From Squalus acanthias (Eukaryota), in the NCBI GenBank assembly GCA_030390025.1, contig CM059431.1:132434001-132498000 (forward strand): a stretch of 64,000 bases of DNA, written 5' to 3'. Of this stretch, positions 2,033 through 62,771 are shown one piece after another (position 1 is the stretch's first letter; the number at the start of each line of letters is the position of its first letter). A program made the translations under genes and the position numbers. The notes under the pieces are model-generated. The model searched no databases and had not been told where the DNA came from. It saw only the letters and a list, made by a program, of their open reading frames with translations.

Positions 2033-2173
2033 TTGTAACAAGTAACCTTGTTAAGCTGCAGCCGTGTGTCCTGTATATTTTACATGTTGCAGCCAAAGTA
2101 CGCTGGTGTTGGAGGGATGGATATTGAGTCCGGTCATGTGGGCTGCTCTTTCCCGGATGATGTCAAACACCTT

Positions 2174-2848
2174 GGGGGAGAATTTCCACTTTGGGTGCAA
2201 CTGCCGATCCAGGCGCAAATTGCGCCCAAAATTGCACTAGTTTTGAGAGTGTTTTTTTCTCAAGTTTTTGCTCAAACTCATTTGCATATTGCCAAATGCA
2301 AAATCTGCCATGAACCAGCACAATTGGTCAGCGTTTTAGAACGTAATTTTTTAAATAAAATATTTTTGCTCTAAAATATATTCCTTGTTATATTTAAGAG
2401 TTGTAACTTAGTGCAATTTGATTAATACAGCTGAAAATGGGTTTATCACAAAAAAGCATTTTTAATCAGAAAGCTAATTATATTGCTGCATAGTAGCCAG
2501 TTTCTTTGTAAATTAAAAACAATATTCAAAAGCTTTTAAACGTGCCTATTAGTGTCCTTGTACCTAAAAAAAGGTTAATTTTAAGACCTTCCTCGAAGGC
2601 CCGCAAACGAGCACAATTAGCGGAAACTTGCAATGTTGATTAATTCGATCTGGGGACAAGGCCAGTTTTGTGGGTGGGGCCAGCTTCTAGTGCGATGTTT
2701 TTTAAACTGGCGCAAAAGATCACAAAAACTCAAATTACGCTGAGCATAATTTGCACTTAAAATTCCACAAATTTTTGCGCTGGTTTGGCCAATTTCTGAT
2801 GAATTATGCCGAATAAAACAGCGCAACCGAGCAGCAACTCCAAGTCCT
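2174..2848. mobile_element. MITE-like non-autonomous DNA transposon (Harbinger-type end)
   Basis: Begins GGGGGAGAATTTCC, like the other Harbinger TIRs here, with GC-rich palindromic subtermini around an AT-rich core. The right end is degenerate. Confidence 0.45.
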
Positions 2849-2859
2849 TGAGTATTGTT

Positions 2860-4085
2860 GCCAGGTATCCTGACTAAATAGGCATTTATCAGGTACGACT
2901 CCAGTCACTGGGTTACATTGCAGGGCTTCACCAGATTTATCCAGGTGCCTAAAACAAGACTTCAGAATGCCAGTAGTCTGCTCTATGACACTTTTTATTG
3001 TTGCATGGACCTTATTACATCTCATTCTGTCTATGAAAGCCTTAATGGTATCATTAGCCATGACAGCTGGGGATTGGCCTGATCACCAATCAACCATCCT
3101 GCTACATAGCTCCAAGTTATGAGGGCTGGTCTGTTAGGTTGTCACATGATGAAAGAGTCATGACTGTTTCCTGGCTATCAGGTGTTCATGTGCAGGGTAA
3201 GGTGATTTGATATCACACACTAGTGGGCTTAAAGCAATGAATGCTTTTTTGGTTCATAAAATTGAGAGGTTGTCCTATGGGGCTTTGAGCGCCATATATG
3301 TTACATCATTTGCTTCTAACATCGTGGGGATCCCACTAGTCTGTAGAACTGGATAGCTATTTCTCTTTTCTTATTCATGAGATATGAGCAAGGCAGAATT
3401 CATTGCCTATTCCTAGTTACCCTGAAGGCATTACGAATGAACCATATAATGAGGGACTAGAGTTACATGTAGGCCAGACCAGGTAGAAGTGGCAGGTCAC
3501 TTTACCTGAAGGACATTAATGAACCAGTTGGATTTTTTACCACAATCCAGCAGCTTTTGTGGTTATTTTATTGCCAGATTTATTGAATTCAATTTCAGAA
3601 CTTTCCATGAACTCTGAACTTCCAGGTTGCTCATCCAGCACCTCAATCACTAGGCTACCATACACTTTTGATTCTCTGACTCCGTTGGCAGTGAAATGAA
3701 TTATGCAGCCCTCCTGAATAGAGCACCTTTTTGATGCCGTGGTGGCAAAGGTCATCAGATGCTGCCTGGAAGGATCCAGTTGCAACTAAATTTACGGCAG
3801 TGGTGACCTTGACTGGTACAGACAATGCTAATCTCTTGGGGGAAGTGGGCTGCATGTCTTCAGCCAGCACTTGACATATTTCCCCAATGACATGGGAGGA
3901 GGGAGGGAAAACACAGAAACATTTGAGTAACAGCCTGTAAACCTGGGTGAGTTGGCATCTGCATGTAGGAAACAAATACATTCTATAACACCTCCCTCTC
4001 AGAGTTTCTAATTTAGTCTCTTCTATCTATCATCTTCCGCCTCTTCATAACAAGGAAAAGAACCATTACCATTGGGAAATCCATG
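2860..4085 (-). pseudogene. Degenerate Harbinger (HARBI1-like DDE) transposase, interrupted by a SINE
   Basis: Fragments VPVKVTTAVNLVATGSFQ and HATIKSVIEQTTGILKSCFRHLDKSG parallel the better-preserved transposase at 28804-29805. Confidence 0.75.
3360..3665 (-). mobile_element. Diverged tRNA-derived SINE built from the 5' and 3' ends of the tRNA-headed LINE family
   Basis: Body CTGGTTCATTAATGTCCTTCAGG...ACCTGGTCTGGCCTACATGT matches 39370-39450. Tail CAGGGTAACTAGGAATAGGCAATGAAT...CATATCTCATGAATAA resembles the LINE 3' end at 40340-40408. Confidence 0.75.
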
Positions 4086-27681: not shown

Positions 27682-30279
27682 GGGCTAGAAATTCATTATA
27701 GCCAAGAAATGGGCAGTGTTTAGATTAAAAATGGTTAAGCAGCGCCACCTGCAAATCATCTAGGATGCACGCAAAATTCATTCTCCTTCCTCAATAAAAT
27801 GATTGCAGTCATGATTCTCGTCTAAAAACGCAAGCTCATTGGTGTTGCACTGAAAAGCTGGACCAATATCGAGAGCAGTCTAAACGCAAGGAATGATTGC
27901 CACAAGCATTTTTCACCACTTAAAGGGGAGATTCATTGATGCTGTAGCATTTTCAGCATTGTTGGGTTTGCAGCTGCCTCAAAAACCATAAGAAGAAGGA
28001 CAAGGAGAAGTAGCACTTAATTTCAAACCCTGACGGCAGATCGCCACCCCAGGGAGAGAGCCCGGAGGTTTTCCGGTGAAGCTTTGGAGGCATTGGTTTT
28101 AGCAGTGGAGAGACGGAAGGCGGTCTTGTACCCGGCAACTGGCAGGAGGCACTCGCCACAAGTCTGCCAGACTATGTGGAGGGAGGTAGCGCAGCACGTC
28201 TTGGGCAGCACTGTGGTCCCCAGGATCCACACACAGTGCAGGAAGAAACTTAATGACCTCGCTCGGGTGGTCAGGGTGAATGAAGGTTTCAACAAATGCT
28301 ACATACCACCATCTGTACCACAATCTTCGGACACTGCTCAATGCACCACACCCCCAGCACTCACCCACCAACAATCTCTAGCAACACTCACACCCACATC
28401 TCATACCTTGCAAACAATGACAGCTATTCAACTATAGCAGGCACAAGGGTCATTAGTTATTAGAATTCATGTGATATGTGTGATATGTTTCTAAATAAAT
28501 TTATTAATTGTGTTTGAAATATTTTGTGGTCTCTTTCGTTTCAGCTTTGCACCCAGGAGGATGCTGTGATATGCCTAAGACAGGGATGGTATGATAGGGA
28601 TATGGGGAGCTACAGGGATCTGGGGTTTCATACATGTGAATCAGAGTCTGATGAGCTAGTCACAGACAGCCCGTCCAGAAGGCCGATTGTCTCACTGCCT
28701 CCTCCCTCCCTCCTGTTCCTCCTCCTCCTTGTCCTCTTCCTCCTTGTCCTCATCCTCATCCTCATCTGCCTCGTTGTCCTCCTGCAATCCCTGCTGGCAA
28801 GGGCTATGATCTCATGATGGCCAAGTTGTGGAGCAAGCAGCAGACCACCACGAAATGGGACACCCGCTCTGGCAAGTACTGGAGGGCTCCTCCTGAGCGG
28901 TCAAGGCAGTAGAACCGTTGCTTCAATAAGCTGATGATCTGCTCGATGATGTTCCTGGTGGCAGCATGGCTCTCATTATATGAGTGCTGGGCATGAGTGT
29001 TGGGGTTGCGGAGGGGAGTCATGAGCCAGGCGGAGAGCGGATAGCCCTTGTCTCCGAGTAGCCACCCTCGAGCTTGGCGTGGTGGCTGGAAGAGTGTTGG
29101 AACAGGATGGCGCAGGATGAAGGCATTGTGGCTGCTGCCAGGATAGCGGGCATTGGCATTAAGGATTTGCTGTTTGTGGTCACACACTAACTGCACATTA
29201 AGTGAGTGGTAGCCTTTGCGGTTACGGAAGATGTCAGGATTGTTATGCGGTGCCCGCAAAGCCACGTGGTTGCAGTTGATGGCACCCTGCAGCATGGGGA
29301 AGCCTGCTATCCTGGCAAAGCCACATGCGCGCTCATCCTGCTTCTCTCTGGTGATTGGGAAGCCAATGTAGTCCTTTCTCCTGCTGTAGATAGCCTCAGT
29401 AACCTCCTGGATGCAGCGATGAATGGCGAATTGTGAGATGTTAGCTATATCTCCTGTTGCAGACTGGAAGGATCCACTTGCAAAGAAATTGAGGGCCACA
29501 GTGACCTTGACTGCCACTGGGAGAGCCATGGTCACCCTGGTCTGAGACTGGAGGTCTGGTTGCAGGAGGTGGCAGAGTTCTGTGACCATCTCCTTGGTGA
29601 AGCGTAGCCTCCTAATACACTGCTCCTCGCTTAATTGAAGGTAGGAGAAGTGCTGTCGGAAGACCCTAGGAGGGTAAGGCTTCCTGTTGAGCACCCTGAT
29701 GGCCCTCCTCCTCCCTCTGCACACAAGTTCCTGTCTTTCTCGCTGCCTCCGCTCCCTCTGCCGTAGATCCTGGAGGGCGAGGTCGACTGCCAGTATGGCC
29801 CCCATGATTTGAGTGTTGTAGTTTGAAGCGTGTCAAAAATAAAGAGGGAGTTTTGTACTTGCCAGAACACTCCCTGATACCAAATAACTAAATAAAACTC
29901 TTGCAGTAGAAGGAAGTAGCACACAGCCACTCAAACTGCAAAACCCTGTCAGGTGCGAGTGATTGGTGATGATCCCTTTAAATATCGTCGCTGGAGCCGG
30001 CTTCCTGCTGCTGCACGCCACCTCAACCTGTCGTTACTTTCTCCAGCCAGTAACTGCAATGGCTCTAACGAAATTAGGAGATCGGGCATCAAGTGAGTGT
30101 TGCACACCCACTGATGTCATGATCTCCACAATTGCGATGTCCCCGGCGATCGAGTTTAGCTGCAGCAGTTCTGGCAACACGAAAATGGCGTGCACTGCTG
30201 GAACCGCCACCAGCTGACGATAAAGTGCCGACCAGCGTTTTCGTGCCATCTCGTGGCGCTAAACATGAATTTCTCCCCC
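27682..30279 (-). mobile_element. Harbinger with near-complete transposase (minus) and truncated Myb gene (plus, about 28040-28440)
   Basis: TIRs GGGCTAGAAATTCA / TGAATTTCTCCCCC. Myb exon ALVLAVERRKAVLYP...W..VAQ...TQCRKKLNDL. Confidence 0.85.
28804..29805 (-). pseudogene. Harbinger (HARBI1-like) DDE transposase, 333 aa open frame with D-to-N changes and a frameshifted acidic tail
   Basis: GAINCNHV (family consensus GAIDCTH), YHSLNVQLVCD, PGSSHNA, LLGDKGY, RNIIEQ, CCLLHN. Confidence 0.9.
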
Positions 30280-35762: not shown

Positions 35763-35943
35763 ATTGAGAGGTCGCACAACACCAGGTTATAGTCCAACAG
35801 TTTTATTTGAAATCACAAGCTTTCGGAGCTATCGATTTGCTCCTTCCTCAGGTGAAGTAAATTAGATACAGAATCGCCAAAGCATATATAGATAGAAAAC
35901 AAAGCATGTGTACTTTACAATTGCAGACCAATAAATTAAATCA
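35763..35943 (-). mobile_element. Penelope-like element terminal fragment
   Basis: 11-bp TSD TCATAAATAGA (35752-35762 and 35944-35954). Contains a minimal hammerhead and the TGTTGGACTATAACCTGGTGTTGTG end also seen at 42761-42821. Confidence 0.75.
35812..35856 (-). ncRNA. Minimal type I hammerhead ribozyme
   Basis: Minus strand UCAC-CUGAGGA-A-GGAGC-AAAUCGAUA-GCUCC-GAAA-GCUU-GUGA: CUGANGA and GAAA cores, 5-bp stem II, palindromic AGCU stem III, UCAC/GUGA stem I. Confidence 0.75.
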
Positions 35944-36567
35944 TCATAAATAGAGGCATAGAGTACAAAAGCAAGGAAGTTATGATGAAACTTTATAAAA
36001 CACTGGTTCGGCCACAATTGAAGTATTGTATCCAATTCTGGGCACCGCACTTTAGGAAGGATATGAAGGCCTTAGAGAGGGTGCAGAAAAGATTTACAAG
36101 AATGGTTCCAGGGGTGAGGGACTTCAGTTACGGGGATAGACTGGAGAAGCTGGGGTTGTTCTCCTTAGAGCAGAGAAGGTTGAGAGGAGATTTGATAGAG
36201 GTGTTCAAAATCATGAGGGGTCTAGACAGAGTAGATAGAGAGAAACTGTTCCCATTGGTGGAAGGGTCGAGAACCAGAGGACAAAGATTTAAGGTGATTG
36301 GCAGAAGAACCAAAGGCGACGTGAGGAAAAACATTTTTACGCAGCGAGTGGTTATGATCTGGAATGAACTGCCTGAAAGGGTGGTGGAGGCAAATTCAAT
36401 CATGGCTTTCAAAAAGGAATTAGATAAGTACCGGAAGGAAAAAAATTGGAAGGGCTATGGAGAAAGGGCGGGAGAGTGGGACTAGCTGAAGTGCTCTTGC
36501 AGAGATCTGGCATGGGCTCGACAGGCCGAATGGCCTCCTTCTGTGCTGTAACCATTCTATGATTCTA

Positions 36568-39500
36568 TGGATGTGGGCGTCGCTGGCAAGGCCAGCATTT
36601 ATTGCCCATCCCTAATTGCCCTTGAGAAGGTGGTGGTGAGCCGCCTTCTTGAACTGCTGCAGTCCGCGTGGTGAAGGTACTCCCATAATGCGCTTAGGAA
36701 AAGAGTTCCAGGATTTTGACCCAGCGATGATGAAGGAACGGTGATATATTTCCATGTCAGGATAGTGTATGACTTGGAGGGGAACTTGGAGGTGGTGGTG
36801 TTCCCATGCACCTGCTGCCCTTGTCTTTCTAGGTGACAGAGGTCGTGGGTTTGGGAGGTGCTGCCGAAGAAGCTTTGGGGTGTTGCTGCAGTGCATCTTG
36901 TAGATGGTACACACTGCAGCTATGGTGCGCCGGTGGTGGAGGGAGTAAATGTTTAAGGAGGTGGATGGGGTGCCAATCAAGCGGGCTGCTTTGTCTTGGA
37001 TGGTGTTGATCTTCCTGAGTGTTGTTGGAGCTGCACTCATCCAAGCAAGTGGAGAGTATTCCATCACACTCCTTACTTGTGCCTTGTAGATGGTGGAAAG
37101 GCTTTGGGGAGTCAGGAGGTGAGTCACTCACTGCAGAATGCCTAGCCTCTGACCTGCCCTTGTAGCCACAGTTAAGTTTCTGGTCAATGGTGACCCCCAG
37201 GATGTTGACGATGGGGGATTCAGCGATGGTAATGCCGTTGAATGTCAAGGGGAGGTGGTTAGACGCTCTCTTGTTGTAGATGGTCAGTGCCTGGCACTTG
37301 TGTTGTGCAATCATTAGCGAACATCCCCACTTCTAACCTTATGATGGAGGGAAGGTCATTGATGAAGCAGTTGAAGATGGTTGGGCCTAGGACACTGCCC
37401 TGAGGAACTCCCGCAGTGATGTCCTGGGGCTGAGATGATTGACCTCCAACAACCACAACCATCTTCCTTAGAGCTAGGTATGACTCCAGCCAGTGGAGAG
37501 TTTTCCTCCTGATTCCCATTGATGTCAATTTTACCTGGGCTCCTTGATGCCACACTCGGTCAAATGCTGCCTTGTTGTCAAGGGCAGTCACTCTCACCTC
37601 ACCTCTGGAATCCAGCTCTTTTGTCCATGTTCAGAGCAAGGCTGTAATGAGGTCTGGTGCTGAGTGGTCCTGGCAGAACCCAAACTGAGCATTGGTGAGC
37701 AGGCTATTGGTGAGTAAGTGCCGCTTGATAGCACTGTCGACGACACCTCCCATCACTTTGCTGATGATTGAGAGTAGACTGATGGGGCGGTAATTGGCCG
37801 GATTGGATTTGTCCTGCTTTTTGTGGACAGGACATACCTGGGCAGTTTTCCACATTGTCGGATAGATGCCAGTGTTGTAGCTGTACTGGAGCAGCTTGGC
37901 TAGAGGCGCGGCTCATTCTGGAGCAGAAGTCTTCAGCACGACAGCCGGGATGTTGTCGGGGCCCATAGCCTTTGCAGTATCCAGTGCGCTGAGCCGTTTC
38001 TTGATATCATGTGGAGTGAATCGAATTGGCTGAAGACTGGCTTCAGTGATGGTGGGGACTTCAGGAAAAGGCCGAGATGTATCATCCATTCGGCACTTCT
38101 GGCTGAAGATGGTTGCAAACGCTTCAGCTTTGTCTTTTGCAGTCGTGTGCTGGGCTCCACCCTCATCGAGAATGGGGATGTTCATGAAGCCTCCTCCTCC
38201 CATTAATTGTTTAATGGTTCACCACCATTCACGACTGGATGTGGCAGAACTGCAGAGCTTTGATCTGATCCGTTGATTGTGGTATCGCTTAGCTCTCTCT
38301 ATAGCATGCTGTTTCCACTGTTTAGCATGCATGTAGTCCTGTGTTGCAGCTTCCCCAAGTTGGCACCTCATTTTTAGGTACGCCTGGTGCTGCTCCTGGC
38401 ATGCTCTTCTGCACTCCTCTTTGAACCAGGTTTGGTCACCTGGTTTGATGGTAATGCTAGAGTGAGAGTTATATGCCAGGCCATGAATTAACAGATTGTG
38501 GTGGAATACAATTCTGCTGCTGCTGATGGCCCACAGCGCCTCATTGATGCCCAGTTTTGAACTGCTAGATCTGTTCTGAATCTATCAGAATGCTGTCATG
38601 GACAGATGCATATGTGACAGGTAGATTGGTGAGGACGAGGTCAAGTAGGTGTTTCCCTCGTGTTGGTTCTCTCACCACCTGCCGCAGTCCTAGTCTGAAA
38701 GCTATGTCTTTCAGGACTCAGCTAGCTCGGTCAGTAGTGGTGCTGCCGAGCCACTCTTGGTGATGGACATTGAAGTCCCCCACCCAGAGTACATTCAGTG
38801 CTCTTGCTACCCTCAGTGCTTCTTCCAAGTGGTGTTCTACAAGGAGGAGTACTGATTCATCAGTTGAGGTAGGGTGGTAGGTGATAATCAGCAGGCGGTT
38901 TCCTTGCTCATGTTTGACCTGATGCCATGAGACTTCATGGGGTCCGGAGTCAATGTTGAGGACTCCCAGGACCACTCCCTCCCGACTGTATACCACCGTG
39001 CCGTCACCTATGGTGGGCCTGTGCTGCCGGTGGGACAGGACATACCCAGGGATGTTGATGGAGGAAGCTGGGACATGAGCTGAAAGGTATGATTCTGTGA
39101 GTATGACTATGTCAGGCTGTTGCTTTACTAGTCTGTGGGACAGCTCTCCCAATTCTGGCACAAATCCCCAGATGTTAGTGAGGAGGACTTTGCAGGGTCG
39201 ACTGGGCTGGATGTGCCGTTGTCGTGTTCGAAGCCGGTGCCTTGGTCGATGCCGGGTGGTCCGTTCGGGTTTATTCTTGTTATTGTTTCTTGTAGCAGTT
39301 TGTTACAACTGAGTGCCTTGCTTGGCCATTTCAGAGGGCAGTTAAGAGTCAACCACATTGCTGTGGGTCTGGAGTCACATACAGGCCAGACCAGGTAAGG
39401 ACGGCAGATTTTCTTCCCTAAAGGACATTAGTGAACCAGATGGGTTTTTTACAACAATCCGGTAGTTTCACGGTCACATTACTGATACTAGCTTTTTATT

Positions 39501-39604
39501 CCAGATTTATTTAATTAACTGAATTTAAATTCACGTCTCTGGATCAGTTAGTTCAGGCCTCTGGATTACTAATCCAGTAACATAACCACTATGTTACCGT
39601 TCCC
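36568..39604 (-). mobile_element. Full-length tRNA-headed, single-ORF CR1-group LINE (SINE-like head, Arg-rich leader, APE, RT); decayed copy
   Basis: tRNA-like arms at 39561-39597. ATG at 39329 is in frame with VLLTNIWG, ILTESYL and VGDFNVHH (APE). RT motifs NYRPISLLS, AFDRVWH and GVPQGSVLGP. C-terminal HHHLLKGN. No ORF1. Confidence 0.88.
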
Positions 39605-47171: not shown

Positions 47172-50112
47172 TGTTCAAACCTCTACAAGAAACTATAATA
47201 AGAATAAAACCAGACGGACCACCTGGCATCGACTGCGGTAACGGCTTCGGACGTGACAATGGCACACCCAGCCCAATTGACCCTGTAAAGTCCTCCTCAC
47301 TAACATCTGAGGATTTGTGCCAAAATTGTGAGAGCTGTCCCACAGACTAGTCAAGCAACGCCTGACATAATCATACTCAAAGAACCATGGTGCAGAAATT
47401 CCGATCCCTACGGGTGTGTACGCGCTGCGTACTCACCCGTAGGGACATGGGAAATGCCGGTTCAGCCAATGTCCCAGATTCCTCTATCACAATCCCTGGG
47501 TATGTCCTGTCCCACCGGCAGGACAGACCCACCAGAGGTGGTGGCACAGTGGTATACAGTCAGGAAGGATTGGCCCTGGTAGTCGTCAGCATTGACTCCG
47601 GACCCCATGAAGTCTCATGGCTTCAGGTCAAGCACGGGCAAGGAAACCTCCTGCTGATTACCACCTACCGCCCTCCCTCAGCTGATGAATCAGTACTCCT
47701 CCATGTTGAACACCACTTGGAAGAAGCACTGAGAATAACAAGGGCACAGAATGTCCTCTGGGTGGGGGATTTCAATGTCCATCACCAAGAGTGGCTCGGT
47801 AGCACCACTACTGACCGAGCTGGCCAAGTCCTGAAGAACATAACTGCCAGTCTGGGCCTGCGACAGGTGGTGAGAGAACCAACACGAGGGAAAAACCTTC
47901 TTGGCCTCGTCCTCACCAATCTACCTGTTGCAGATGCATCTGTTCCTGACAGTATTGGTAACAGTGACCACCGTACAGTCATTGTGGAGACGAAGTCTCG
48001 TCTTCACACTGAGGACACCCTCCATCGTGTTGTGTGGCACTACCACCATGCTAAATGGGATTGATTCAGAACAGATCTAGCAGCTCAAAATTGGGCATCC
48101 ATGAGGCGCTGTGGGCCATCAGCAGAAGCAGAATTGTATTCCACCGCAACTGTAAACTCATGGACCGCCATATCCCTCACTCTACCATTAACATCAATCC
48201 AGGCAACCAAACCTGGTTCAATGAGAAGTGTAGAAGAGCATGCTAGGAGCAGCACCAGGCATACCTAAAAATGAGGTGCCAACCTGGGGAAGCTGCAACA
48301 CAGGACTATATGCATGCTAAACAGCGGAAGCAGCTTACTATAGATGGAGCTAAGCGATCCCACAGCCAACGGATCAGATCAAAGCTTTGTAGTCCTGCCA
48401 CATCCAGTCGTGAATGGTGGTGGACCATTAAACAACTAATGGGAGGAGGAGGCTCCATGAATATCCCCATCCTCAATGATGGTGGAGCCCAGCACGCGAG
48501 TGCAAAAGACAAGGCTGAAGAGTTTGCAACCATTGTCAGCCAGAAGTACTGAGTGGAAGATCCAGCTCGGCCTCCTCCTGAGGTCCCCACCATCACAGAA
48601 GCAATTCGTTTCACTCCAGGTGATATCAAGATACGGCTTAGTGTACTGGATACAGCAAATGCTATGGGCCCCGAAATATCCCAGCTGTTGCATTGAACTA
48701 GCCACGCCTCTAGCCAAGCTGTTCCAGCACAGCTACAACATTGGCAAGCACCTGACAATGTGGAAAACTGCCCAGGTATGTCCTGTCCACAAAAAGCAGG
48801 ACAAATCCAATCCGGCCAAGTACCGCCCCATCAGTCTATTCTCAATCATCAGCAAAGTGATGCAAGGTGTCATCGACAGTGCTATCAAGCAGCACTTACT
48901 CACCAATAACCTGCTCACCGATGCTCAGTTTGGGTTCTGCCAGGACCACTCGGCTCCAGACCTCATTACAGCCTTGGTCCAATCATGGACAAAAGAGCTG
49001 AATTCCAGAGGTGAGGTGAGAGTGACTGCCTTTGACATCAAGGCAGCATTTGACCGAGTGTGGCATCAAGGAGCCCTAGTAAAAGTGAAGTCAATGGGAA
49101 TCAGGGGAAAGACTCTCCACTGGCTGGAGTCATATCTAGCACAAAGGAAGATGTTTGTGGTTGTTGGAAGCCAATCATCTCAGCCCCAGGACATCGCTGC
49201 AGGAGTTCCTCAGGGCAGTGTCCTAGACCCAACCATCTTCAGCTGCTTCATCAATGACCAACCCTCCATCATAAGGTCAGGAGTGGGGATGTTCGCTGAT
49301 GATTGTACAGTGTTCAAATCCATTCGCAGCTCCTTAGATAAGTGCCAGGCAATGACTATCTCCAATAAGAGAGCGTCTAACCATCGCCCCTTGACATTCA
49401 ACAGCATTACTATTCCCGAATCCCCCAAAATCAACATCCTGGGGGTCACCATTGACAAGAAACTTAACTGGACCAGCCACATAAATACTGTGGCTACAAG
49501 AGCAGGTCAGAGGCTGGGTATTCTGTGGTGAGTATCTCACCTCCTGACTCCCCAAAGCCTTTCCACCACCTACAAGGCTCAAGTCAGGAGTGTGATGGAA
49601 TACTCTCCACTTGCCTGGATAAGTGCAGCTCCAACAACACTCAAGAAGCTCAACACCATCTAGGACAAAGCAGCCCGCTTGATTGGCACCCCATCCACCA
49701 CCTTAAACATTCACTCCCTCCACCACCAGCGCACCGTAGCTGCAGTGTGTACCATCTACAAGATGCACTGCAGCAACTCGCCAAGGCTTCTTCGACAGCA
49801 CCTCCCAAACCCATGACCTCTACCACCTAGAAGGACAAGGGCAGCAGGCGCATGGGAACACCATCACCCCCAAGTTCCCCTCCAAGTCACACACTATCCT
49901 GACTTGGAAATATATCGCCGTTCCTTCATCGTCGCTGGGTCAAAATCCTGGAACACCCTCCCTAGCAGCACTGTGGGAGTACTTTCACCACAAGGACAGA
50001 AGCAGTTCAAGAAGGTGGCTCACCACCACCTTCTCGATAGCAATTAGGGATGGGTAATAATGCTGGCCTTGCCAGCGACGCCCACATCCCAGGAACTAAT
50101 ATTTAAAAAAAA
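47172..50112 (+). mobile_element. tRNA-headed LINE family, near-full coding region (head missing), decayed
   Basis: Leader ATRN...RHR...PCKVLLTNI, APE (YRPPS, GDFN, SDH), RT (MFADDCTVF) and 3' tail with poly(A). Contains a MITE end at about 47387-47463. Confidence 0.9.
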
Positions 50113-50404: not shown

Positions 50405-53200
50405 AGGTAACAGAATGGATAGCAAGTGGCTACAAAACAAAAAACAGAGTAGGGCTTAAAGGCAGCTACTCAGACTGGTAAAAGGTTAAGAAGTGGTGTT
50501 CCACAAGGAACAGTGCTGGGACCACTGTTGTTCACAATTTACATTAACGATTTGGACTTGGGAATCAGAAGTACAATTTCTAAATTTGCAGATGACACAA
50601 AATTGGGGGGTGTAGCTCATACAAAGGAAGAATGTGACAAAATACAAGAAGAAGTTAATAAACTTGCAGAATAGGCGTGCAATTGACAAATGAATTTCAA
50701 TATAGTTAAGTGTAAGGTGGTGCATTTTGATAGGAAGAATAAGGAAGCCACATACTGCTTGGATAATAAGAGTCTAAATGGGGTACAGGAGCAAAGAGAT
50801 CTAGGGGTACAGATACACAAATCACTAAAAGTAGTGACGCAAGTTAATAAGGCCATAAAAAAAGCAAACCAAGCACTGGGGTTCATTTCTAGAGGGATAG
50901 AATTGAAAAGCAGGGAAGTCATGTGAAAATTGTATAGAAACTTGGTTAGACTACACTTGGAGTGCTGTGCACAGTTCTGGTCTCCGTATTATAAAAATAA
51001 TACAGACGCATTGGAGAAAGTGCAAAAGAAGTTTCACAAAGATAATACCAGAACTGAGAGGTTATAAGTATCAGAAAAGATTGAACAGGCTGGGGCTCTT
51101 TTCTCAAGAAAAGGGAAGGCTGAGGGGTGACCTGATAGAGTTTTTTAAGATAATGGAAGAGTTTGATAGGGTACATAAGAACATAAGAAATAGAAGCAGG
51201 AGTAGACCATTCGGCCCTTCGAGCCTGCTTCGCCATTCAATGAGATCATAGCTGATCTTCTGCCTCAACTCCATTCACCGGCCCTATCGCCATATCCCTT
51301 GAGGCCCTTACTAGTCAGAAATCTATCGACTTCTGTTTTGAATATACCCAATGACTGAGCCTCCACAGCCCTCTGGGGTAGAGAATTCCAAAGATTCACC
51401 ACCCTCTGTGTGAAGAAATTTCTTCTCATCGCAGTCCTGAATGGCCTACCCTTTATCCTGAGGCTGTGGCCCCTGGTTCTAGACTCCCCAGCCAAGGGAA
51501 ACATTCTCCCAGCATCCACCCTATTAAGCCCTGTAATAATTTTGTATGCTTCAATGAGATCCCCTCTCATTCTTCTGAATTCAAGAGAATACAGGCCTAG
51601 TTTACTCAATCTCTTCTCATACGACAGTCCTGCCATACCAGGAATCAATCTCGTGAACCTTCGTTGCACTCCCTCTATGGCAAGTATATCCTTCCTTAGG
51701 TAAGGAGACCAAAATTGTATACAGTACTCCAGGTGTGGTCTCACCAAGGCCCTATATAATTGGAGTAAGACTTCTTTACTCCTGTACTCAAATCCTCTTG
51801 TAATGAAGGCCAGCATACCATTTGCCTTCCTAATAGCTTGCTGCACCTGCACATTCACTTTCAATGACTCATGTACAAGGACACCCAGGTCCCTTTGAGC
51901 ATCTGTATTCCCCAATCTTTCACCATTTAGGAAATACTCTGCCTTTCTGTTTTTTCTACCAAACTGGATAACTTCACATTTATCCACATTATATTCCATC
52001 TGCCATGTTCTCGCCCATTCACTGAGCCTGTTGAGATCCCCTTGAAGCCTCTTCACATCCTCTTTGCAACTGACACTGTCACCTAGCTTTGTATCATCAG
52101 CAAATTTGGAAATGTTACATTTAGTCCCCTCATCCAAATCATTGATATAGATTGTGAATAGCTGGGGCCCAAGCACCGATCCTTGCGGTACCCCACTAGT
52201 CACAGCCTGCCATCCTGAAAAAGACCCGTTTATCGCTACTCTTTGTTTTCTGTCTGTTAACCAATTCTCAATCCATGCTAGTATATTACCCCCAATTCCA
52301 TGTGCCCTAATTTTGTTCACCAACCTCTTGTGTGGGAACTTATCGAAGGCCTTCTGAAAATCCAAATACACCACATCTACCAGTTCCCCTTTGCCTACTC
52401 CACTAGTTACAACCTCAAAGAACTCCAATAGGTTTGTTAAACAGGATTTCCCTTTCATAAATCCATGTTGACTCTGCCCAATCTTACTATTAGTTTCTAA
52501 GTGCCCAGTTATTGCATCCTTTATAATAGATTCCAACATTTTCCCAACTACTGATATGAGGCTAACAGGTCTGTAGTTCCCCGTTTTCTCTCTCCCTCCT
52601 TTCTTAAATAGCGGGATTACATTTGCTATCCTCCAATCTGCAGTAACCGTTCCAGAATCTATAGAATTTTGGAAGATGACAACCAATGCGTCCACTATCC
52701 CAATGGTCACCTCTTTCAAAACCCTAGGATGTAGGTCATCAGGTCCTTGGGATTTATCGACTTTTAGTCCCATTAATTTTGCTAGTACTGTTTTGTTACT
52801 AATAATAATTTCTTTAAGTTCCTCATTCTCGTCACACCCTTGGTTTTCTCGTATTTCTGGGAGGTTTTTTGTGTCTTCCTCTGTAGACGTAGAGAAGCTG
52901 TTTCCAGTTGTGGGGGAAGACCAAAACTAGGGGCCATAAATATAAGATAGTCACCAATGGATCCAATAGGGAATTCAGGATAATGTGATACTCGCTACCA
53001 CAGAGGTAGTTGAGGCAACTAGCATAGATGTATTAAGGGGAAGCTAGCTAAGTACATGAGGAAAAAAGGAATAGAAGGATATTCTGATAGGGTTAGATGA
53101 AGAGGGGTGAGATGAGTCTCGTGTGGAGAATAAACGCCGGCATCGACCAGTTGGGCCAAATGGCCTGTTTCCATGCTGCAGACTCTATGTAATTCTATGT
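50405..53200 (+). mobile_element. CR1 LINE 3' part (50405-51173 and 52884-53200) split by an inverted CR1
   Basis: RT motifs; the sequence rejoins GATAGGGTA|GACGTAGAGAAG; ATTCTATGT tail. Confidence 0.88.
51174..52883 (-). mobile_element. Young CR1 LINE 3' part with an uninterrupted 502-aa RT frame (51265-52773)
   Basis: NYRPVSL, QHGFMKGKSC, YLDFQKAFDK, GVPQGSVLGP, FADDTKL, and a (TTCTTATG)n tail. Confidence 0.95.
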
Positions 53201-54198
53201 AAGCCGACGATGCAGGAGGAGCCCAAGGAAGAGGAGTGGATGAACATCAGGCCACTTATAGCACTGCAGCAGCCCACAAGTAAGTGGCATCAGGGAGGGA
53301 TCAGTGGACTTGGGGGAGATTGTGGGCCTGGGGGGTGGTACAGGGTAGCGGCAGCTGGCAGTGGCTGGCTGGAGTGAGGGCCATGGGGATGGAGATTGGG
53401 TGTCAGGGATCCTGGGGTCTGGGCCTGGGCCTGGGTTGGGGGCCTGAGGTGAGATATCAGGGGTAAGGATCACGTGGGGGGGGGGAGGGGGTGCTTGGGT
53501 TGGGAGCTGGGGGAGAGTGATATCGGGGTTGAAGATCTTGAGACCGGGGGGTTGAGGGGGAGGGAGATCAGGGATCTCGGGACAAGGAGGGGATCGGAAG
53601 CAGCGGCGATCAGGAAGGTCTTTAATGTGGGGTCGCAAGGATTTCTGCTGCTCCTCCTGGCTCCACATTCAGGTAAGTTACTTTCCTTTTTGTTGCAGGT
53701 ATTCTGTAGGATTGTTTTCCCTGAGTGTAACCAGCAAAAAAATCTTGCAGCGGGGACCTCAAGCAGGCATTAGGCCCGTTATTTGCATATGCAAATGTAT
53801 CGTATTAAGGAGAATGTTCTTATATGTATATCTTATTCAGGAAAGTTTTGCAAGGCTGCACTCCTTACTCAAACAGAGCACAGCTCAGAGATTTGAGTCT
53901 GGAGGTCAGCCCAGCCAATTTGGAGCAATGTTTTACTGGTATGAAAAACCTGCTGGACTATAATAAGGGTTAACAGTAACAACAAAATGAACAAGAGCTT
54001 CAAATGTGTGACCACATATTGTCAAGAGTTCTGGCAAAGATTTTTTAAAGCCAATGAAACTGTTGAGAAGTCTGTCCTGTTGATAGACACTGTAGAAAGA
54101 TTTTTGACAGTGAATTTATACAGCTGTTCACCAAAGGACTCAATTCTTGCAGTTTTGTTTACTCTTGTTAAAATATCAAGTGACTTTTGGATTAACAG

Positions 54199-58472: not shown

Positions 58473-58494
58473 AAAGGCTCATAGAGTCATAGAG

Positions 58495-61374
58495 TTATAC
58501 AGCACAGAAAGAGGCCCTTCGGCCCATCGTGTCCGCACCAGCCATCAAGCCCTGTCTATTCCAATCCCATTTTCCAGCACTTGGTCCGTAGCCTTGTATG
58601 CTATGGCGTTTCAAGTGCTCATCTAAATGCTTCTTGAATGTTGTGAGGGTTCCTGCCTCTACCACCCTTTCAGGCAGTGAGTTCCAGATTCCAACCACCC
58701 TCTGGGTGAAAAAGTTTTTCCTCAAATCCCCTCTAAACCTCCTGCCCCTTACCTTGAAACTATGCCCCCTGGTTATTGACCCCTCTACTAAGGGGAAAAG
58801 TTCCTTTCTATCTACCCTATCTATGCCCCTCATAATTTTGTACACCTCAATCAGGTCCCCTCTCAGCCTTCTCTGCTCTAAGGAAAATAACCCCAGCCTG
58901 TCCAGTCTCTCTTCATAGCTGAAGCACTGCAGCCCAGGTAACATCCTGGTGAATCTCCTCTGCACCCTCTCCAATGCAATCACATCCTTCCTATAGTGTG
59001 GCGACCAGAACTGCACACAGTATTCCAGCTGTGGCCTAACTAGCGTTTTGTACAGCTCCATCATAACCTCCCTGCTCTTATATTCTATGCCTCAGCTAAT
59101 GAAGGCAAGTATCCCATATGCCTTTTTAACCACCTTATCTACCTGTCCTGCTGCCTTTAGGGATCTATGTACATGCACACCAAGATCCCTCTGATCCTCT
59201 GTCCTTCCTAGGGTCCTACCATTCATTGTGTATTCCCTTGCCTTGTTAGTCCTCCCAAAATGCATCACCTCACACTTTTCAGGGTTAAATTCCATTTGCC
59301 ACTGTTCTGCCCATCTGACCAACCCGTCTATATCGTCATGTAGCCTGAGGCTTCCCTCCTCGCTATTTACCACCCCACCAATTTTCGTGTCATCTGCGAA
59401 CTTACTGATCATACCTCCTCCATTCATATCTAAATCATTAATGTACACTACAAACAGCAAAGGACCCAGCACCGATCCTTGCGGTACACCACTGGACACA
59501 GGCTTCCAGTCACAAAAACATCCTTCGACCATCACCCTCTGCCTCCTGCCACTAAGCCAATTTTGGATCCAATGTGCCAAGTTGCCCTGGATCCCATGGG
59601 CTCTTACCTTCTTGACCAGTCTCCCATGCGGGACTTTGTCAAAAGCCTTACTGAAGTCCATGTAGACCACATCAACTGCACTACCCTCATCCACACACCC
59701 AGTCACCCCCTCGAAAAATTTAATCAAATTGGTCAGACATGATCTCCCCCTGACAAAGCCATGCTGGCTATCCTTGATTAATCCTTGCCTCTCCAAGTGG
59801 AGACTAATTCTGTCCCTCAGAATTTTTTCCAATAATTTCCCTACCACTGATGTTAGGCTCACTGGCCTATAATTCCCTGGTTTATCCCTACTACCCTTCT
59901 TGAATAATGGTACTATGTTAGCTGTTCTCCAGTCCTCTGGCACCTCCCCTGTGGCCAGAGATGTTCTGAAAAATTTGTGTCAGAGCCCCTGCAATCTCCT
60001 CCCTTGCCTCACACAGCAGCCTGGGATACATCTCGTCTGGGCCTGGGGATTTATCCACTTTTAAGCCCGCTAAAACCGCTAGTACCTCCTCCCTCTCAAT
60101 ACTAATTTGTTCAAGTATATCACAATCCCCCTGTCTGATTTCTATGCCTACATCGTCCTTCTCCATAGTGAACACAGATGCAAAATATTCATTTAAAACC
60201 CCACCTACATCTTCTGGCACTACACACAGATTGCCACTTTGGTCCCTAATGGGCCCTACTCTTTCCCTGGTTATCCTCTTGCCCTTAATATATTTATAAA
60301 ACACCTTGGGATTTTCCTTTATTTTGCCCGCCAGTGTTATTTCATGCCCCCTCTTCGCTCTCCTAATTTCTTTTTTAAGTACCCCCCTGCACTCTCTGTA
60401 CTCCTCTAGGGCTTCCACTGTTTTTAGTCCTTTGTATCTGCGAAAAGCCTCCCTTTTTTTCCTAATCCATTCTCGTATATTCCTTGACATCCAGGGTTCC
60501 CTGGGCTTGTTGGTCCCACCCTTGACCTTTACGGGAACATGTTGGCATTGTACTCTCTCTATTTCCTTTCTGAAAGACTCCCACTGCTCTGATGTGGATT
60601 TTCCTACAAGTAGCTGATCCCAGTCCACTTTGGCCAGATCCTGCCTTATCATATTAAAGTCGGCCTTCCCCCAATTTAGAACCTTTATTTCCGGTCCATC
60701 TTTGTCCTTTTCCATGACTACCTTAAATCTCACCGAATTATGGTCACTGTCACCAAAATGCTCTCCTACTGACACTTCTACCACTTGCCCAGTTACATTC
60801 CCTAGAATTAGGTCCAGTACCGCCCCCTCTCTTGTAGGACTTTCTACATGCTGGCTCAAAAAGCTCTCCTGGATGCACTTTAAGAATTCCGCACCCTCTA
60901 AGCCTTTCACACTCTGACTATCCCAGTTAATATTGGGGAAGTTGAAATCCCCTACTATTATTACTCTATTATTTCTACACTTCTCTGAGATTTGCCTACA
61001 TATCTGTTCCTCTATCTCCCCCTGACTGTTTGGGGGCCTATAGTACACTCCCAGCAAAGTGCTTGCCCCTTTTTGTTTTTAAGTTCTACCCATATGGCCT
61101 CATTAGAGGAATCTGCTAAGATATCATCCCTCCTTACAGCAGCAATTGACTCCTTGATTAATATTGCGACACCCCCGCCTCTTTTACATCCCCCTCTGTC
61201 TCGCCTGAAGATTCTATACCCTGGAATATTGAGCTGCCAGTCCTGCCCCTCCCTCAACCATGTCTCTGTGATAGCAACAATATCATACTCCCATGTGTTC
61301 ATCAACACCTTCAATTCATCTGCCTTACTCGCAAGACTCCTTGCATTAAAATAAATGCCGTCCAGCCTTGCCAT
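58495..61374 (-). pseudogene. CR1 ORF2 (APE endonuclease plus reverse transcriptase), frameshifted
   Basis: YFNARSL, ITETWL, YYRPP, GDFN, SDHN, then RT motifs including FADDTK. Confidence 0.92.
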
Positions 61375-61498
61375 ACTCCCTTGTGCCGTTACATATTTGC
61401 TCTGACTTCCAGGTTGACTTGTTTTTTCCTCTATATTTGGCTGTGCATCACCCCCTACTATAGCTCCACTCTGTATCCCATCCCCCTGCCAAGTTAGT

Positions 61499-62449
61499 TT
61501 AAACCCCCCCCCCCACAACAGTACTAGCAAACCTCCCCGCAAGGATGTTGGTCCCGTTCCGGTTCAGGTGCAACCCGTTCGACTTGTCCAGGTCCCACCT
61601 TCCCCAGAAGCAGACCCAGTGATCCAGGAAACTAAAGCCCTCCCTCCTGCACCAACTCTTTAGCCACGCATTCATCTGCTCTATCCTCCTATTCCTATAC
61701 TCACTAGCATGTGGCACCGGGAGTAATCCAGAGATTACAACCTTTGAGGTCCTGCTTTTTAATCTGCTACCTAGCTCCCTAAATTCTTGTTGCAGGACCT
61801 CATCCCTCTTTCTACCCATGTCGTTGGTACCAATGTGAACCACGACCTCTGACTGTTCGCCCTCCCCCTTCAGAATGCCCTGCAGCCGTTCAGTGACATC
61901 CTTGACCCTGGCACCAGGGAGGCAACATACCATCTTGGAGTCACGTCTGCAGCCACAGAAACGTCTATCTGTTCCCCTTACGATAGAATCCCCTATCACT
62001 ATTGCTCTCCCACTCTTTTTCCTCCCCTCCTGTGCAGCTGAGCCACTCGTAGTGCCACGGACTTGGCTCTTGCTGCATTCCCCTGAGAAACCATCTCCCC
62101 CATCAGTATCCAAAACGGAAAATCTGTCGGAGAGAGAGATGGACCCAGCGGACTTCTGCACTACCTTCCTAGTTCTTTTACTCTGTCTGGTGGTCACCCA
62201 TTCCCTGTCTGCCTGTGCACTCTTTACCTGCGGTGTGACCAACTTGTTAAATGTGCTAGCCAAGAAGATCTCAGCTTCACAGATGCTCCACAGTGACTCC
62301 AGCCGCAGCTCCAGCTCCGAAACATTGATTTCGAGTAGCTGCAGCTGGAGACACTTCCTGCACATGTGTTCGCCCTGGACACCTAAAGTGTCCCTGACTT
62401 CCAACATAGCACAGGAGGAGCACTCCACACTGTCGAGCTGCCCTGCCAT
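61499..62449 (-). CDS. CR1 ORF1 protein: CxxC/CxxC zinc finger, leucine zipper, SGNH esterase domain
   Basis: CSSC...CRKC, heptad Leu repeat, IGDSIVRG, HIGTND, GLHLN. Confidence 0.88.
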   Translation of the reverse strand: MAGQLDSVECSSCAMLEVRDTLGVQGEHMCRKCLQLQLLEINVSELELRLESLWSICEAEIFLASTFNKLVTPQVKSAQADREWVTTRQSKRTRKVVQKSAGSISLSDRFSVLDTDGGDGFSGECSKSQVRGTTSGSAAQEGRKKSGRAIVIGDSIVRGTDRRFCGCRRDSKMVCCLPGARVKDVTERLQGILKGEGEQSEVVVHIGTNDMGRKRDEVLQQEFRELGSRLKSRTSKVVISGLLPVPHASEYRNRRIEQMNAWLKSWCRREGFSFLDHWVCFWGRWDLDKSNGLHLNRNGTNILAGRFASTVVGGGV

Positions 62450-62771
62450 GTCCTACCATTAATTTACTCCTTTTAAATTAAAGAATATTAAATACACTAG
62501 GGACCTTACTTCCCTTTAAACACTACTTACTCTAAACTAGAGACCTTACTTTTACTTTAATGACTGGAATGTAGAAATACTGTAGAAATACTCACCGCTG
62601 GTTCTCTGTCCCCTCTTGTGCAGCTTTTTAGCTCCTGCTCTCCTGGAAGCTGACAAAGATGGAAAAAGAAAGGAACACCTCACTCCCCAAACTCACAGTT
62701 TAACACTCTGTTCCAATCTGCTCATTTGAAATTGGGCCTTGGGCCTCATCTGAATAATATCAGTGAGCTGC

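Follow-up and report, generated by a model that had tools for sequence, protein, structure and literature searches.

A 3.3-kb LINE family with a tRNA-derived SINE head in Squalus acanthias, and its proposed transcription by Pol III

LINEs are usually described as coding elements made by Pol II and SINEs as non-coding elements made by Pol III (Kojima 2018, PMC5786205; Kojima 2024, PMC10886601). An element at positions 36568-39604 of a 64,000-nt stretch of Squalus acanthias DNA, here called the window, combines features of both: on the minus strand a tRNA-like head leads through a SINE-type body into the decayed frame of an APE and an RT. This raises the question of whether a SINE came to lie beside a LINE by chance or whether the head is the genuine 5' end of a coding LINE family and, if so, which polymerase makes its RNA. 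The coordinates and letters of the element are as the first-pass annotation gave them, and the minus strand read from 39604 is GGGAACGGTAACATAGTGGTTATGTTACTGGATTAGTAATCCAG. The window copy, the parts of which are listed in Table 1, is a dead, decayed member of a LINE family with units of about 3.3 kb. Relative to the family, two internal segments of about 100 nt each have been deleted from its ORF and the final ~20 nt of the tail (..CATGAACGAATAAAAA) are absent. Alignment with 29 other copies places a further deletion of about 28 nt at 39532/39533; it removed the B box, as the initial reading had suspected, and also the T arm.

Table 1. Parts of the headed element and related sequences in the window, with the evidence for each
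Feature	Position	Strand	Evidence and remarks
tRNA-derived head	39533..39604	-	Sequence, Rfam tRNA 24.7 bits, alignment of 29 other copies, box counts
A box in window head	39586-39596	-	Sequence
Anticodon-like arm in window head	39561-39577	-	Sequence; a second, duplicated copy of the arm is present
SINE-type body	39306..39532	-	SINE alignment; common to the partner SINE family up to ~39290
Short ATG..TAA frame inside body	ATG 39327-39329, TAA 39303-39305	-	Codon counts
Decayed single ORF	36609..39302	-	ORF list, Pfam; interrupted by stops and frameshifts
APE (Exo_endo_phos)	38718-39302	-	Pfam
RT (RVT_1)	37259-37912	-	Pfam
C-terminal region after RT	ends at TAG 36609-36611	-	ORF list, majority frame
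3' untranslated tail with stem-loop	36568..36608	-	Ends of 16 copies; natural-tail fold; tail common to SINEs
Second family copy	47176..50089	+	BLAST; without head and body
SINE-body-related fragment	3424..3556	-	BLAST, 75% identity to element 137-271

When element positions 1-505 were searched against the 3.7-Gb genome of the species, 41 matches were obtained. A junction unique to this locus, the outcome that the first-pass annotation had named as fatal to its reading, was not found: 40 of the 41 matches span the passage from head to ORF, so the link between the two is more than chance. Thirty-seven matches begin within 8 nt of element position 1, and in 29 aligned loci the family has a sharp 5' end at the tRNA-like +1, upstream of which the flanks are unrelated. 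In 16 copies the family could be followed from its head as far as its 3' tail. Thirteen of these, 3.0-3.25 kb in length, were used in an alignment; the majority sequence excludes L032, L039 and L050 owing to a large deletion, an internal duplication and a rearrangement. The majority sequence of 3,299 nt represents 14 copies, i.e., the 13 traced copies and the window copy. From 5' to 3' the unit consists of the head, a body of about 210 nt, one 973-codon ORF for APE and RT, and a 3' stem-loop tail, in total about 3.3 kb, as had been proposed from the single copy. None of the sampled copies showed an ORF1 or an alternative 5' UTR. All copies in the sample whose sequence extends to the 5' end have this architecture of head, body, ORF and tail; as the sample was picked by similarity to a head-containing query, full-length copies without a head may have escaped it.

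The head and body match the ORF in age. From the majority sequence, the body diverges by 3.6% and the ORF by 5.2%, compared with 11.5% for sampled SINE copies. Variants in the 5' part are linked with variants in the ORF, the observed value being reached in 3 of 400 permutations, whereas a head variant present in three copies (G13, A21, C26, G32, A140) coincided with ORF variants at two sites only (P 0.40). Target-site duplications that bound the unit are plausible in two of the 16 copies; a third match of at least 6 nt lies inside the tail, and mismatched pairs used as a control gave matches of at least 6 nt in 4.6% of cases. All 16 copies that reach the tail are broken and none is intact. The longest open frame among 114 scored RT matches comprises 653 amino acids.

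In the majority sequence the single frame of 973 codons is open without a stop. Only 311 nt precede it, which leaves no room for an ORF1, in agreement with the first-pass annotation. A short ORF1 in the form of an off-frame ORF of 76 codons, with its ATG at majority position 256, was considered and dropped, as this T-poor sequence contains many off-frame ORFs of 67-120 codons. The manner in which the long frame is opened differs from that first described. The ATG at 39329 had been thought to lead straight into the APE. It is indeed in frame with the APE, yet a TAA at 39305-39303 intervenes, and this in-frame TAA is retained in 27 of 30 copies; in 16 of the 30, codon 3 of the short frame is in addition a TAG. 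Because conserved in-frame stops intervene, the ATG does not lead directly to the APE, and no in-frame AUG opens the ORF.

The ORF has been under purifying selection while the family diversified, as indicated by an excess of synonymous changes among the variants that several copies have in common. In an alignment in which unrelated DNA behind interrupted copies was masked, 948 nonsynonymous and 361 synonymous variants occur in one copy, 146 and 91 in two copies, and 54 and 56 in three or more. The ratio of nonsynonymous to synonymous variants falls from 2.63 in singletons to 0.96 in variants of three or more copies (Fisher test of one copy versus three or more, odds ratio 0.37, p 1e-6). Of the variants that create a stop, 64 occur in one copy, seven in two copies and one in three or more.

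The sense strand of the family is purged of T runs. The majority sequence contains 472 single Ts, 82 runs of two, seven of three and none of four or more, compared with 15, 11 and 8 runs of at least four A, C and G, respectively; individual copies have zero to two T4+ runs. Mononucleotide shuffles predict 20.8 runs of three or more Ts instead of the seven observed, and none of 3000 shuffles was as low. In the ORF, five T3+ runs contrast with 11.7 in codon-order shuffles (P 0.004). If the same protein were encoded with uniform use of synonymous codons, 5.1 T4+ runs would be expected and their absence would have a probability of 0.0017. These T-run results recur with the masked majority sequence. 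However, zero T4 is not rare under the codon usage of the family itself (probability about 0.11 in codon shuffles, 0.64 under a second-order Markov model), and therefore the signal lies in the wider depletion of T runs and T codons and in the difference from other families. T4+ runs number 19 and 15 in two further LINEs of the window; in RT-coding DNA their density is 0.00 per kb for the present family (5.7 kb in 10 regions) compared with 2.89, 5.48 and 4.13 per kb for other LINE groups. The depletion is compatible with Pol III transcription but is no proof of it.

The Rfam tRNA model matches 39540-39603 on the minus strand with 24.7 bits (E 0.007, 501 nt searched), which falls short of the gathering score of 29, and in the intact head of another copy the D, anticodon and T arms align to the model with 20.4 bits, likewise below that threshold. 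ARAGORN found no tRNA in the window. Rfam gave no match in 14 loci at the gathering threshold and none in eight loci at E values up to 1; the sub-threshold tRNA matches appear only in searches of small regions. Folding of the intact head is no more stable than that of shuffled sequences (z -0.12). The A box TAGCATAGTGG at positions 9-19 is present with at most one mismatch in 21 of 29 other copies. The B box GAGTTCAAATCC at positions 72-83, which according to the first-pass annotation should be intact in full-length copies, is present with at most one mismatch in 14 of the 29 and missing from the remainder; this share is biased because the query copy itself has no B box. In family heads the two boxes have tRNA-like spacing, and the first base of the copies lies some 8-12 nt upstream of the A box, as expected for initiation from a type-2 Pol III promoter.

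At the other end, the tail is the LINE family's own and is also found on SINEs. The natural tail is predicted to form a stem-loop of -26.6 kcal/mol, although 11 of 200 shuffles fold equally well, and in 16 copies the family ends in a short, A-rich stretch. SINE copies end with the same last 110-130 nt as the LINE. The partner SINE of about 430 nt corresponds to the element from position 1 to ~263-307 joined to ~2943-2991 through the end, and contigs of four runs contain joints of this SINE form (366xx/393xx). At least nine different deletion joints between the 5' and 3' parts of the LINE were distinguished among the partner SINEs, which are the headed LINE minus its ORF, cut at several junctions.

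We consider the chances about even that the ~3.3-kb family spread as one headed unit whose RNA was made by Pol III from the A/B-box promoter. Pol III would synthesize the template RNA from this internal promoter, beginning at the head or immediately upstream of it, and would traverse 3.3 kb because it encounters no TTTT terminator. The same RNA, or part of it, would be translated without a conventional AUG, possibly through reinitiation after an upstream frame of 2-8 codons, readthrough or internal entry. The resulting protein would bind the 3' stem-loop and copy the RNA at a nicked target, and internal deletions of the headed LINE would yield ready-made SINEs. That an uncapped Pol III RNA of 3.3 kb is both messenger, with an AUG-free start, and template, and that the headed LINE is the missing intermediate in the birth of SINEs, is a bolder proposal, to which we give somewhat less than an even chance. 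Pol III RNA without a cap serves poorly as a messenger, and we know of no natural Pol III transcript that reaches kilobase length. Pol III processivity has been treated as a limit on element length (Kojima 2024, PMC10886601). From the first-pass annotation, the SINE-headed LINE structure is thus retained, as the junction is family-wide, and the start at the ATG is abandoned; the putative Pol III transcription gains independent support from the T4-free sense strand of the majority sequence.

A different history, in which a Pol II-driven LINE took the 5' part of a SINE as a new 5' UTR, is in our judgment unlikely but deserves consideration. The head would then be a fossil or a platform for Pol II promoter function or factors, and the T depletion a matter of composition. 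LINEs are known to evolve by exchange of their 5' UTR (SolRTE, 10.1101/2022.11.04.512097), and the purifying selection on the ORF fits an mRNA-based cis-preference, but the family has neither an AUG start nor a leader typical of capped mRNA. Codon usage may explain the lack of T4 runs (P ~0.11) but not the scarcity of T3+ runs, which persists against codon-order shuffles, and T runs are not depleted in four further LINE groups of this DNA. Half of the sampled heads have no B box, yet the copies begin where Pol III would start. An AATAAA about 40 nt before the end of the tail, repeated at the end, suits Pol II; two further AATAAA motifs within the first 120 nt of the body do not, and Pol III-made SINE RNAs can be polyadenylated through AATAAA (PMC8466645). 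In another reading, the element would be a giant SINE, a Pol III RNA with a passenger ORF that is copied in trans by the protein of a LINE with the same tail. Tails of the stringent type permit trans-mobilization of same-tailed SINEs, and the family has no usable AUG. A passenger ORF is nonetheless very improbable because the open frame is kept across subfamilies: about half of the variants in three or more copies are synonymous, versus about a quarter of the singletons, and a single stop-creating variant reached three or more copies, versus 64 singletons.

The headed copies might also be recurrent by-products. In that case a headless LINE would share the body, as its 5' UTR, with the SINE, and within this body the RT would switch from LINE RNA to SINE RNA, again and again creating one-off chimeras that are not the form which replicates. 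Template-switch chimeras of SINEs or small RNAs with LINEs are documented for L1 (10.1101/2025.02.02.635956), switching would be favored by the ~210 nt over which SINE and LINE are homologous, and both head variants of the LINE copies also occur on SINE copies. The copy at 47176, the sole one not picked by the head query, starts right after the body: its BLAST homology begins at element position 303, i.e., majority position 312, the first base past the TAA, and the DNA upstream is unrelated to the headed element. That this copy shares the element without its head had been recognized at the outset. However, an ORF lineage purged of T runs makes sense only if the headed form is transcribed, and the linkage of 5' and ORF variants (3/400 permutations) argues in the same direction, even if co-variation in time could mimic it. 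Moreover, LINE-linked bodies carry TAAC in 27 of 30 cases, most SINE copies TATC or TACC, and the bodies are much less diverged (3.6%) than the SINE copies (11.5%). We regard recurrent chimeras as improbable. Least credible of all is a LINE that inserts at one site inside SINE copies, the head being that of its target. It is contradicted by the downstream sides of the tails, where the flanks are unrelated and no SINE remainder was found in 16 of 16 copies; in addition, the SINE copies are far older than the head and body, which match the ORF in age, and the alignments cross the junction as one block.

If the family did spread as a headed, Pol III-made unit, how does it relate to known elements? 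No published description of a coding LINE family with a tRNA-type SINE head was found in the literature, and its sequence motifs, as printed strings, had no match there. Single-ORF LINEs of the stringent type such as UnaL2 are about 3.3-3.6 kb in size, encode APE and RT without an ORF1 and share their 3' stem-loop with a partner SINE. The present family resembles them in size, in the single ORF, in the SINE-shared stem-loop and in having no long poly(A), but differs in its head; we know of no tRNA-like 5' end on UnaL2-type LINEs. Compared with tRNA-derived SINEs, the head, the T4-free unit and the LINE tail match, whereas the 3.3-kb length and the 973-codon ORF do not. The pairs Bov-B with Bov-A and Bov-tA (RTE) and Vingi-2_ACar with SINE2-1_ACar are described by Kojima (2015, PMC4494074; 2018, PMC5786205). 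As in our case, a short partner of the Bov-tA type consists of a tRNA-derived head and the 5' and 3' parts of a LINE, and its body arises by internal deletion of the LINE. In these accounts of Bov-B and Vingi, however, the head is on the short element only and the coding LINE is headless, whereas here the full-length coding element is headed. Such 5' sharing is reported there for the RTE and Vingi clades only, and the bipartite LINEs are considered likely to be transcribed by Pol II (Kojima 2018, PMC5786205).

Chimeras of U6, tRNA or Alu with L1 likewise have a Pol III-type small RNA or SINE joined 5' of a LINE, probably by template switching (10.1101/2025.02.02.635956), and by analogy the first headed copy may plausibly have arisen as such a chimera. 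The L1 chimeras described are single insertions of 5'-truncated L1 that founded no families, whereas here dozens of copies share one junction and the ORF is selected. Promoter turnover in L1 is a further case of 5'-UTR switching among LINEs. In SolRTE of Nicotiana a new 5' end was gained while the ORF and the 3' end were conserved; the acquired ends are taken as Pol II promoters, and the preprint uses none of the terms tRNA, polymerase III and Pol III (10.1101/2022.11.04.512097). Among non-SINE retrotransposons, the TRIMp3 elements Cassandra, Helenus and Ajax resemble the present family in possessing a Pol III promoter derived from a small RNA, but they are non-coding LTR elements of 311-1263 bp, not coding elements of 3.3 kb, and their length has been tied to Pol III processivity (Kojima 2024, PMC10886601). 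In sharks and rays, the HE1 SINE, a V-SINE of about 400 bp, is tRNA-derived and has a tail in common with the CR1-like LINE HER1 (PMC3747384, PMC2911107). The partner SINE of about 430 nt follows the same plan. To our knowledge, the 5' end of a full-length HER1 has not been described. Should the partner SINE prove to be HE1, its V-domain would represent the 5' region of the associated LINE.

A coding LINE family with a SINE head and a sense strand cleared of Pol III terminators blurs the division between LINEs and SINEs and provides an instance in which a long, protein-coding Pol III transcript can be tested for. The family further suggests a route to SINEs in which head, body and tail are preassembled on the LINE and differing internal deletions give rise to differing SINE subfamilies, in contrast to current models, which add the head to an already deleted LINE. 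If this holds true, a single internal deletion makes a working SINE, which would explain the source of the conserved SINE body. Repeat annotation will overlook such elements if it masks the initial 300 nt under the label SINE and the remainder under that of a 5'-truncated LINE.

Exo_endo_phos, Exo_endo_phos_2 and RVT_1 of Pfam were matched on fragments of both family copies of the window, and the Protein Atlas assigned the RT to generic 'reverse transcriptase' clusters only. The RT is 29% and 32% identical to those of two other LINE families of the window. BLAST identified six 3' fragments of the family in the window. Beyond it, 31-mers of the window copy turn up in runs from at least 10 organisms. 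Contigs of uncertain kind from four runs have loose ends at 36569, and summed contig depth, a weak measure, drops from 3' to 5' along the element in all four.

The head-ORF junction of the element, the approximately 3.3-kb tRNA-headed LINE of which the window holds one headed copy, recurs in the Squalus acanthias genome. A search of the 3.7-Gb assembly (3,882 contigs) with element nucleotides 1-505 yielded 41 scored matches out of 10,411 first-look candidates. The junction is spanned by 40 of them (query start ≤21, end ≥483), the remaining match covering 135-500, and in 37 the similarity begins no more than 8 nt from position 1. When 29 loci outside the window were aligned with 60 nt of flank, the 5' edge of similarity was sharp at GGGAACGG, lying a few bases earlier in a minority, and the DNA upstream of the head differed at every locus. 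The first-pass annotation, which had described a LINE with a tRNA-derived head, was correct in all but its ATG, and its observation extends to a family.

Twenty of the matched loci were extended to 4.8 kb, and in 16 copies the sequence could be followed from the head through to a shared 3' end, ...GACGCCCACATCCC(A/G)TGAACGAATAAAAAAA, which together with the recurrent junction supports the earlier view of a SINE-headed LINE unit. Thirteen of the 16 measure 3.0-3.25 kb; three were kept out of the alignment, one each for a large deletion, internal duplication and rearrangement. Compared with the family, the window copy is short because it has lost the T arm, about 100 nt at each of two internal sites (element 1016/1019 and 2301/2302) and the last approximately 20 nt. 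Between its head and its reading-frame fragments lies a non-coding body of about 230 nt; the frame itself has many breaks. All 16 traced copies are broken, and the longest open frame among 114 scored RT matches is 653 aa. The majority-rule sequence of 14 copies (3,299 nt, along which majority positions are counted) contains a single stop-free frame of 973 codons (312-3230), upstream of which there is nothing that could be ORF1. The copies diverge from the majority sequence by 4.4-6.3%. For the approximately 60 nt preceding the A-rich end a stem-loop is predicted (-26.6 kcal/mol), 11 of 200 shuffles being equally stable. Target-site duplications are visible in only 2 of the 16 traced copies, too few to bear on the extent of the unit: a likely duplication, AGATAC, flanks the whole head-to-tail unit at locus L032, and another likely one at L048, of about 19 nt with one mismatch, lies within a tandem repeat; the other 14 show none. 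The 3' end of the window copy is cut off by another repeat (..ATAGAATCATAGAATGGTTACAGCACAGAAGGAGGCC..); an adjoining frame looks like the C-terminal end of a different LINE family and shares 19% identity with the C-terminus of the element family (E 1e-5). Relative to the window copy, the second, headless copy carries an insertion (..ggtgcagaaattccgatccctacgggtgtgtacgcgctgcgtactcacccgtaggg..) with an inverted repeat.

Features of the window considered in the analysis
Feature	Coordinates	Strand	Remarks
Element, window copy	39604-36568	minus	3,037 nt
Exo_endo_phos domain	38718-39302	minus	in reading-frame fragments of window copy
RVT_1 domain	37259-37912	minus	in reading-frame fragments of window copy
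Stretch with the repeat that cuts off the 3' end of window copy	35940-36567		
Adjoining frame	35940-36485	plus	
Second copy	47176-50089	plus	
Insertion in second copy	47388-47461		~73 nt
Control LINE	50600-53400	minus	15 T4+ runs
Control LINE	58478-62720	minus	esterase-type ORF1; 19 sense-strand T4+ runs
ORF1, then APE and RT, of the preceding control LINE	58495-62452	minus	ORF1 matches GDSL-type lipase/esterase and OSK domains
Open frame with DDE_Tnp_4 domain	28804-29832	minus	342 aa; E 4e-31

The first 72 nt of the window copy resemble the 5' two-thirds of a tRNA, with an A-box match at element positions 9-19, a D-like stem, a 5-bp stem whose 7-nt loop has AGT at the anticodon place, and a second, diverged anticodon-type arm behind the first. 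The Rfam tRNA model scores 24.7 bits on 39540-39603 of the minus strand (E 0.007 in a 501-nt search), below its gathering score of 29, and ARAGORN reported no tRNA in the window. The T arm absent from the window copy is retained in many others (...GAGACGTGAGTTCAAATCCCACCACGGCAGCTGGGG...). In L014, a locus with an intact head, the D, anticodon and T arms align to the Rfam model with a 22-nt insertion. Since this alignment reaches only 20.4 bits and wider Rfam searches gave no tRNA match, the head is a degenerate SINE head of the typical kind rather than a tRNA gene. If one mismatch is allowed, 21 of 29 copies have the A box TAGCATAGTGG and 14 have the B box GAGTTCAAATCC, which sits at position 71-72 in 13 of these. 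An intact B box, whose presence in full-length copies the first-pass annotation proposed to check, is thus kept in part of the sampled copies; the count is biased downward, as the query has no T arm of its own and the scored matches, 40 in number, were ranked by likeness to it. T-arm/B-box deletions are frequent in LINE copies L002-L030 at element ~60-100 (window 39505-39545), nearly all with different end points, and have the similar words GAGTTCAAATCC and GAATTTAAATTC on either side; among headed SINE copies only about 1 in 16 has one. This excess is partly due to the query; slippage between the repeats, or a reverse transcriptase skipping the structured or modified T loop, are conceivable causes.

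A LINE inserted into copies of a SINE would also place a head before an ORF. This reading is excluded, as none of the 16 traced copies has a SINE remainder behind the LINE tail. Nor are the heads old SINE insertions, since divergence from the majority is 3.6% in the LINE-attached body and 5.2% in the ORF, versus 11.5% for sampled free SINE copies relative to their own majority. Variants that copies share within the first 311 nt, the T-arm region excepted, correlate with those shared in the ORF, with a mean r2 of 0.058 versus 0.049 ± 0.003 after permutation, a value reached in 3 of 400 permutations; the correlation is modest, co-variation in time could yield the same, and the association of one three-copy head variant with ORF sites was not significant. 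The head probably replicates as part of the LINE, and a headless replicating sibling is possible, because the only copy not chosen by a head-containing query, the second copy, starts directly after the body at majority position 312. Its common sequence begins at element position 303, preceded by unrelated DNA. A query of the ORF start alone matched 40 further places in the genome.

The ATG at 39329 is kept in 28 of 30 copies in the APE frame, but it does not lead straight into APE as first annotated. It is followed by GCC and then by NAG, which is TAG in 16 of 30 copies, CAG in 7, GAG in 5 and AAG in 2, and six codons further downstream by TAA in 27 of 30. The first base of the NAG codon (window 39321-39323, majority position 291) thus takes all four values, switching a TAG stop on or off, and the later TAA is fixed. 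The 973-codon frame starts directly past the TAA, with its first in-frame ATG only at majority position 1170. Given the conserved stops behind the ATG and the distance to the next one, three routes of initiation are conceivable: reinitiation after a tiny upstream frame, stop-codon readthrough (CAA follows both stops), or internal or non-AUG initiation.

Selection on the ORF was assessed in 31 copies aligned to the majority sequence, after masking of non-belonging stretches, by sorting variants outside CpG contexts according to the number of carrier copies.

Variants in the ORF by number of copies carrying them
Carriers	Nonsynonymous	Synonymous	Stop-creating
One	948	361	64
Two	146	91	7
Three or more	54	56	1

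Between variants in one copy and those in three or more the odds ratio is 0.37 (Fisher test, p 1e-6). Changes in lineages that produced further copies were filtered for coding capacity; the headed LINE was therefore a working coding element during its spread and not a dead passenger.

Vertebrate Pol III terminates at sense-strand runs of four or more T. The majority sequence has 472 single T, 82 runs of two, seven of three and none of four or more (T4+), versus 15 such runs of A, 11 of C and 8 of G; single copies have 0-2. Mononucleotide shuffles predict 4.1 T4+ runs (P(0) 0.015) and 20.8 runs of at least three, a number as low as the observed 7 occurring in none of 3000 shuffles. Codon-order shuffles of the ORF predict 11.7 runs of at least three versus 5 observed (P 0.004), and recoding this protein with all synonymous codons used equally would give 5.1 T4+ runs (P(0) 0.0017). 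Phe is rare (1.8%) and encoded by TTC 15 times versus TTT 3 times. Null models in which the TT and T-codon depletion of the family is already built in account for much of the T4+ effect, P(0) rising to 0.11-0.12 with codon shuffles, 0.20 with a first-order and 0.64 with a second-order Markov model. The contrast with neighbouring LINEs is the stronger argument, thymine content being alike (0.21 in the headed family versus 0.24-0.25). T runs have been purged in the headed family, the pattern expected from selection against Pol III termination along the whole unit, for which it is indirect evidence.

T4+ runs in RT-coding DNA
Group	RT regions	Length (kb)	T4+ per kb
Headed LINE family	10	5.7	0.00
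Group of 50600-53400 LINE	15	10.0	2.89
Group of 58478-62720 LINE	2	1.5	5.48
Other LINE RTs (<60% identity to any query)	9	5.8	4.13

The partner SINEs are deletion forms of the headed LINE. With a short repeat beside one locus as query, 40 matches out of 4,766 first-look candidates were aligned and proved to be tRNA-headed SINEs of about 430 nt, whose head and body are collinear with the first 300-325 nt of the LINE and whose last 110-130 nt are the LINE tail, the junction varying between subfamilies. An older subfamily (L052-L064 and others) has the terminus ...GAATGAATTTTTAAAAA, where a T5 run immediately precedes the A-rich end and resembles a built-in terminator for Pol III; in LINE copy L046 a T8 run occupies this place. 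When contigs from public runs of four organisms, one run each, were mapped on the element, they covered 30 of 30 bins in every run. Many contigs join 36614-36662 to 39298-39342 and so represent the ORF-less form, with nine or more distinct junctions, and a loose contig end at 36569 marks the true 3' end of the family. The 31-mers of the window copy are present in runs of at least ten organisms; like the contigs, they denote presence of the sequence and not expression.

Transcription of the headed LINE by Pol III is plausible, T-run depletion being the one independent line of support. Pol III would initiate at the head and transcribe to the first T run past the element; the RNA would be translated without a normal AUG start, and the protein would bind the 3' stem-loop and copy the RNA at a nick. 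AATAAA in the tail might, through polyadenylation, render such an RNA more messenger-like; Pol III-made RNA of some mammalian SINEs with AAUAAA can be polyadenylated, according to PMC8466645. The first headed copy could stem from a reverse transcriptase jumping off the 5' end of LINE RNA onto a tRNA-like or SINE RNA, and single L1 chimeras from such template jumps are recorded in a preprint (10.1101/2025.02.02.635956).

The nearest systems, as described in PMC4494074 and PMC5786205, are Bov-B/Bov-A/Bov-tA and Vingi-2_ACar/SINE2-1_ACar, in which the SINE consists of 5' and 3' parts of the LINE plus a tRNA head; there the LINE itself is headless, whereas here the coding LINE bears the head. Kojima 2018 (PMC5786205) states that 5' sharing of this kind was found for RTE and Vingi only, that SINEs cannot code for protein and that Pol II is the likely polymerase of LINE-type elements. 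The same division is drawn in Kojima 2024 (PMC10886601), where the length of Pol III-promoted elements is tied to processivity. In the full-text literature searched, outside which lie most subscription journals, Repbase and Dfam, we found no description of an autonomous LINE that bears a head or is driven by Pol III, and no paper with the element's sequence motifs; an earlier description in those sources is possible. To judge from a table row in PMC3747384, the partner SINE may be HE1, a V-SINE found in sharks and rays, in which case its LINE would be HER1. Elsewhere in the window, the DDE_Tnp_4 frame indicates the remnant of a PIF/Harbinger-type DNA transposon.
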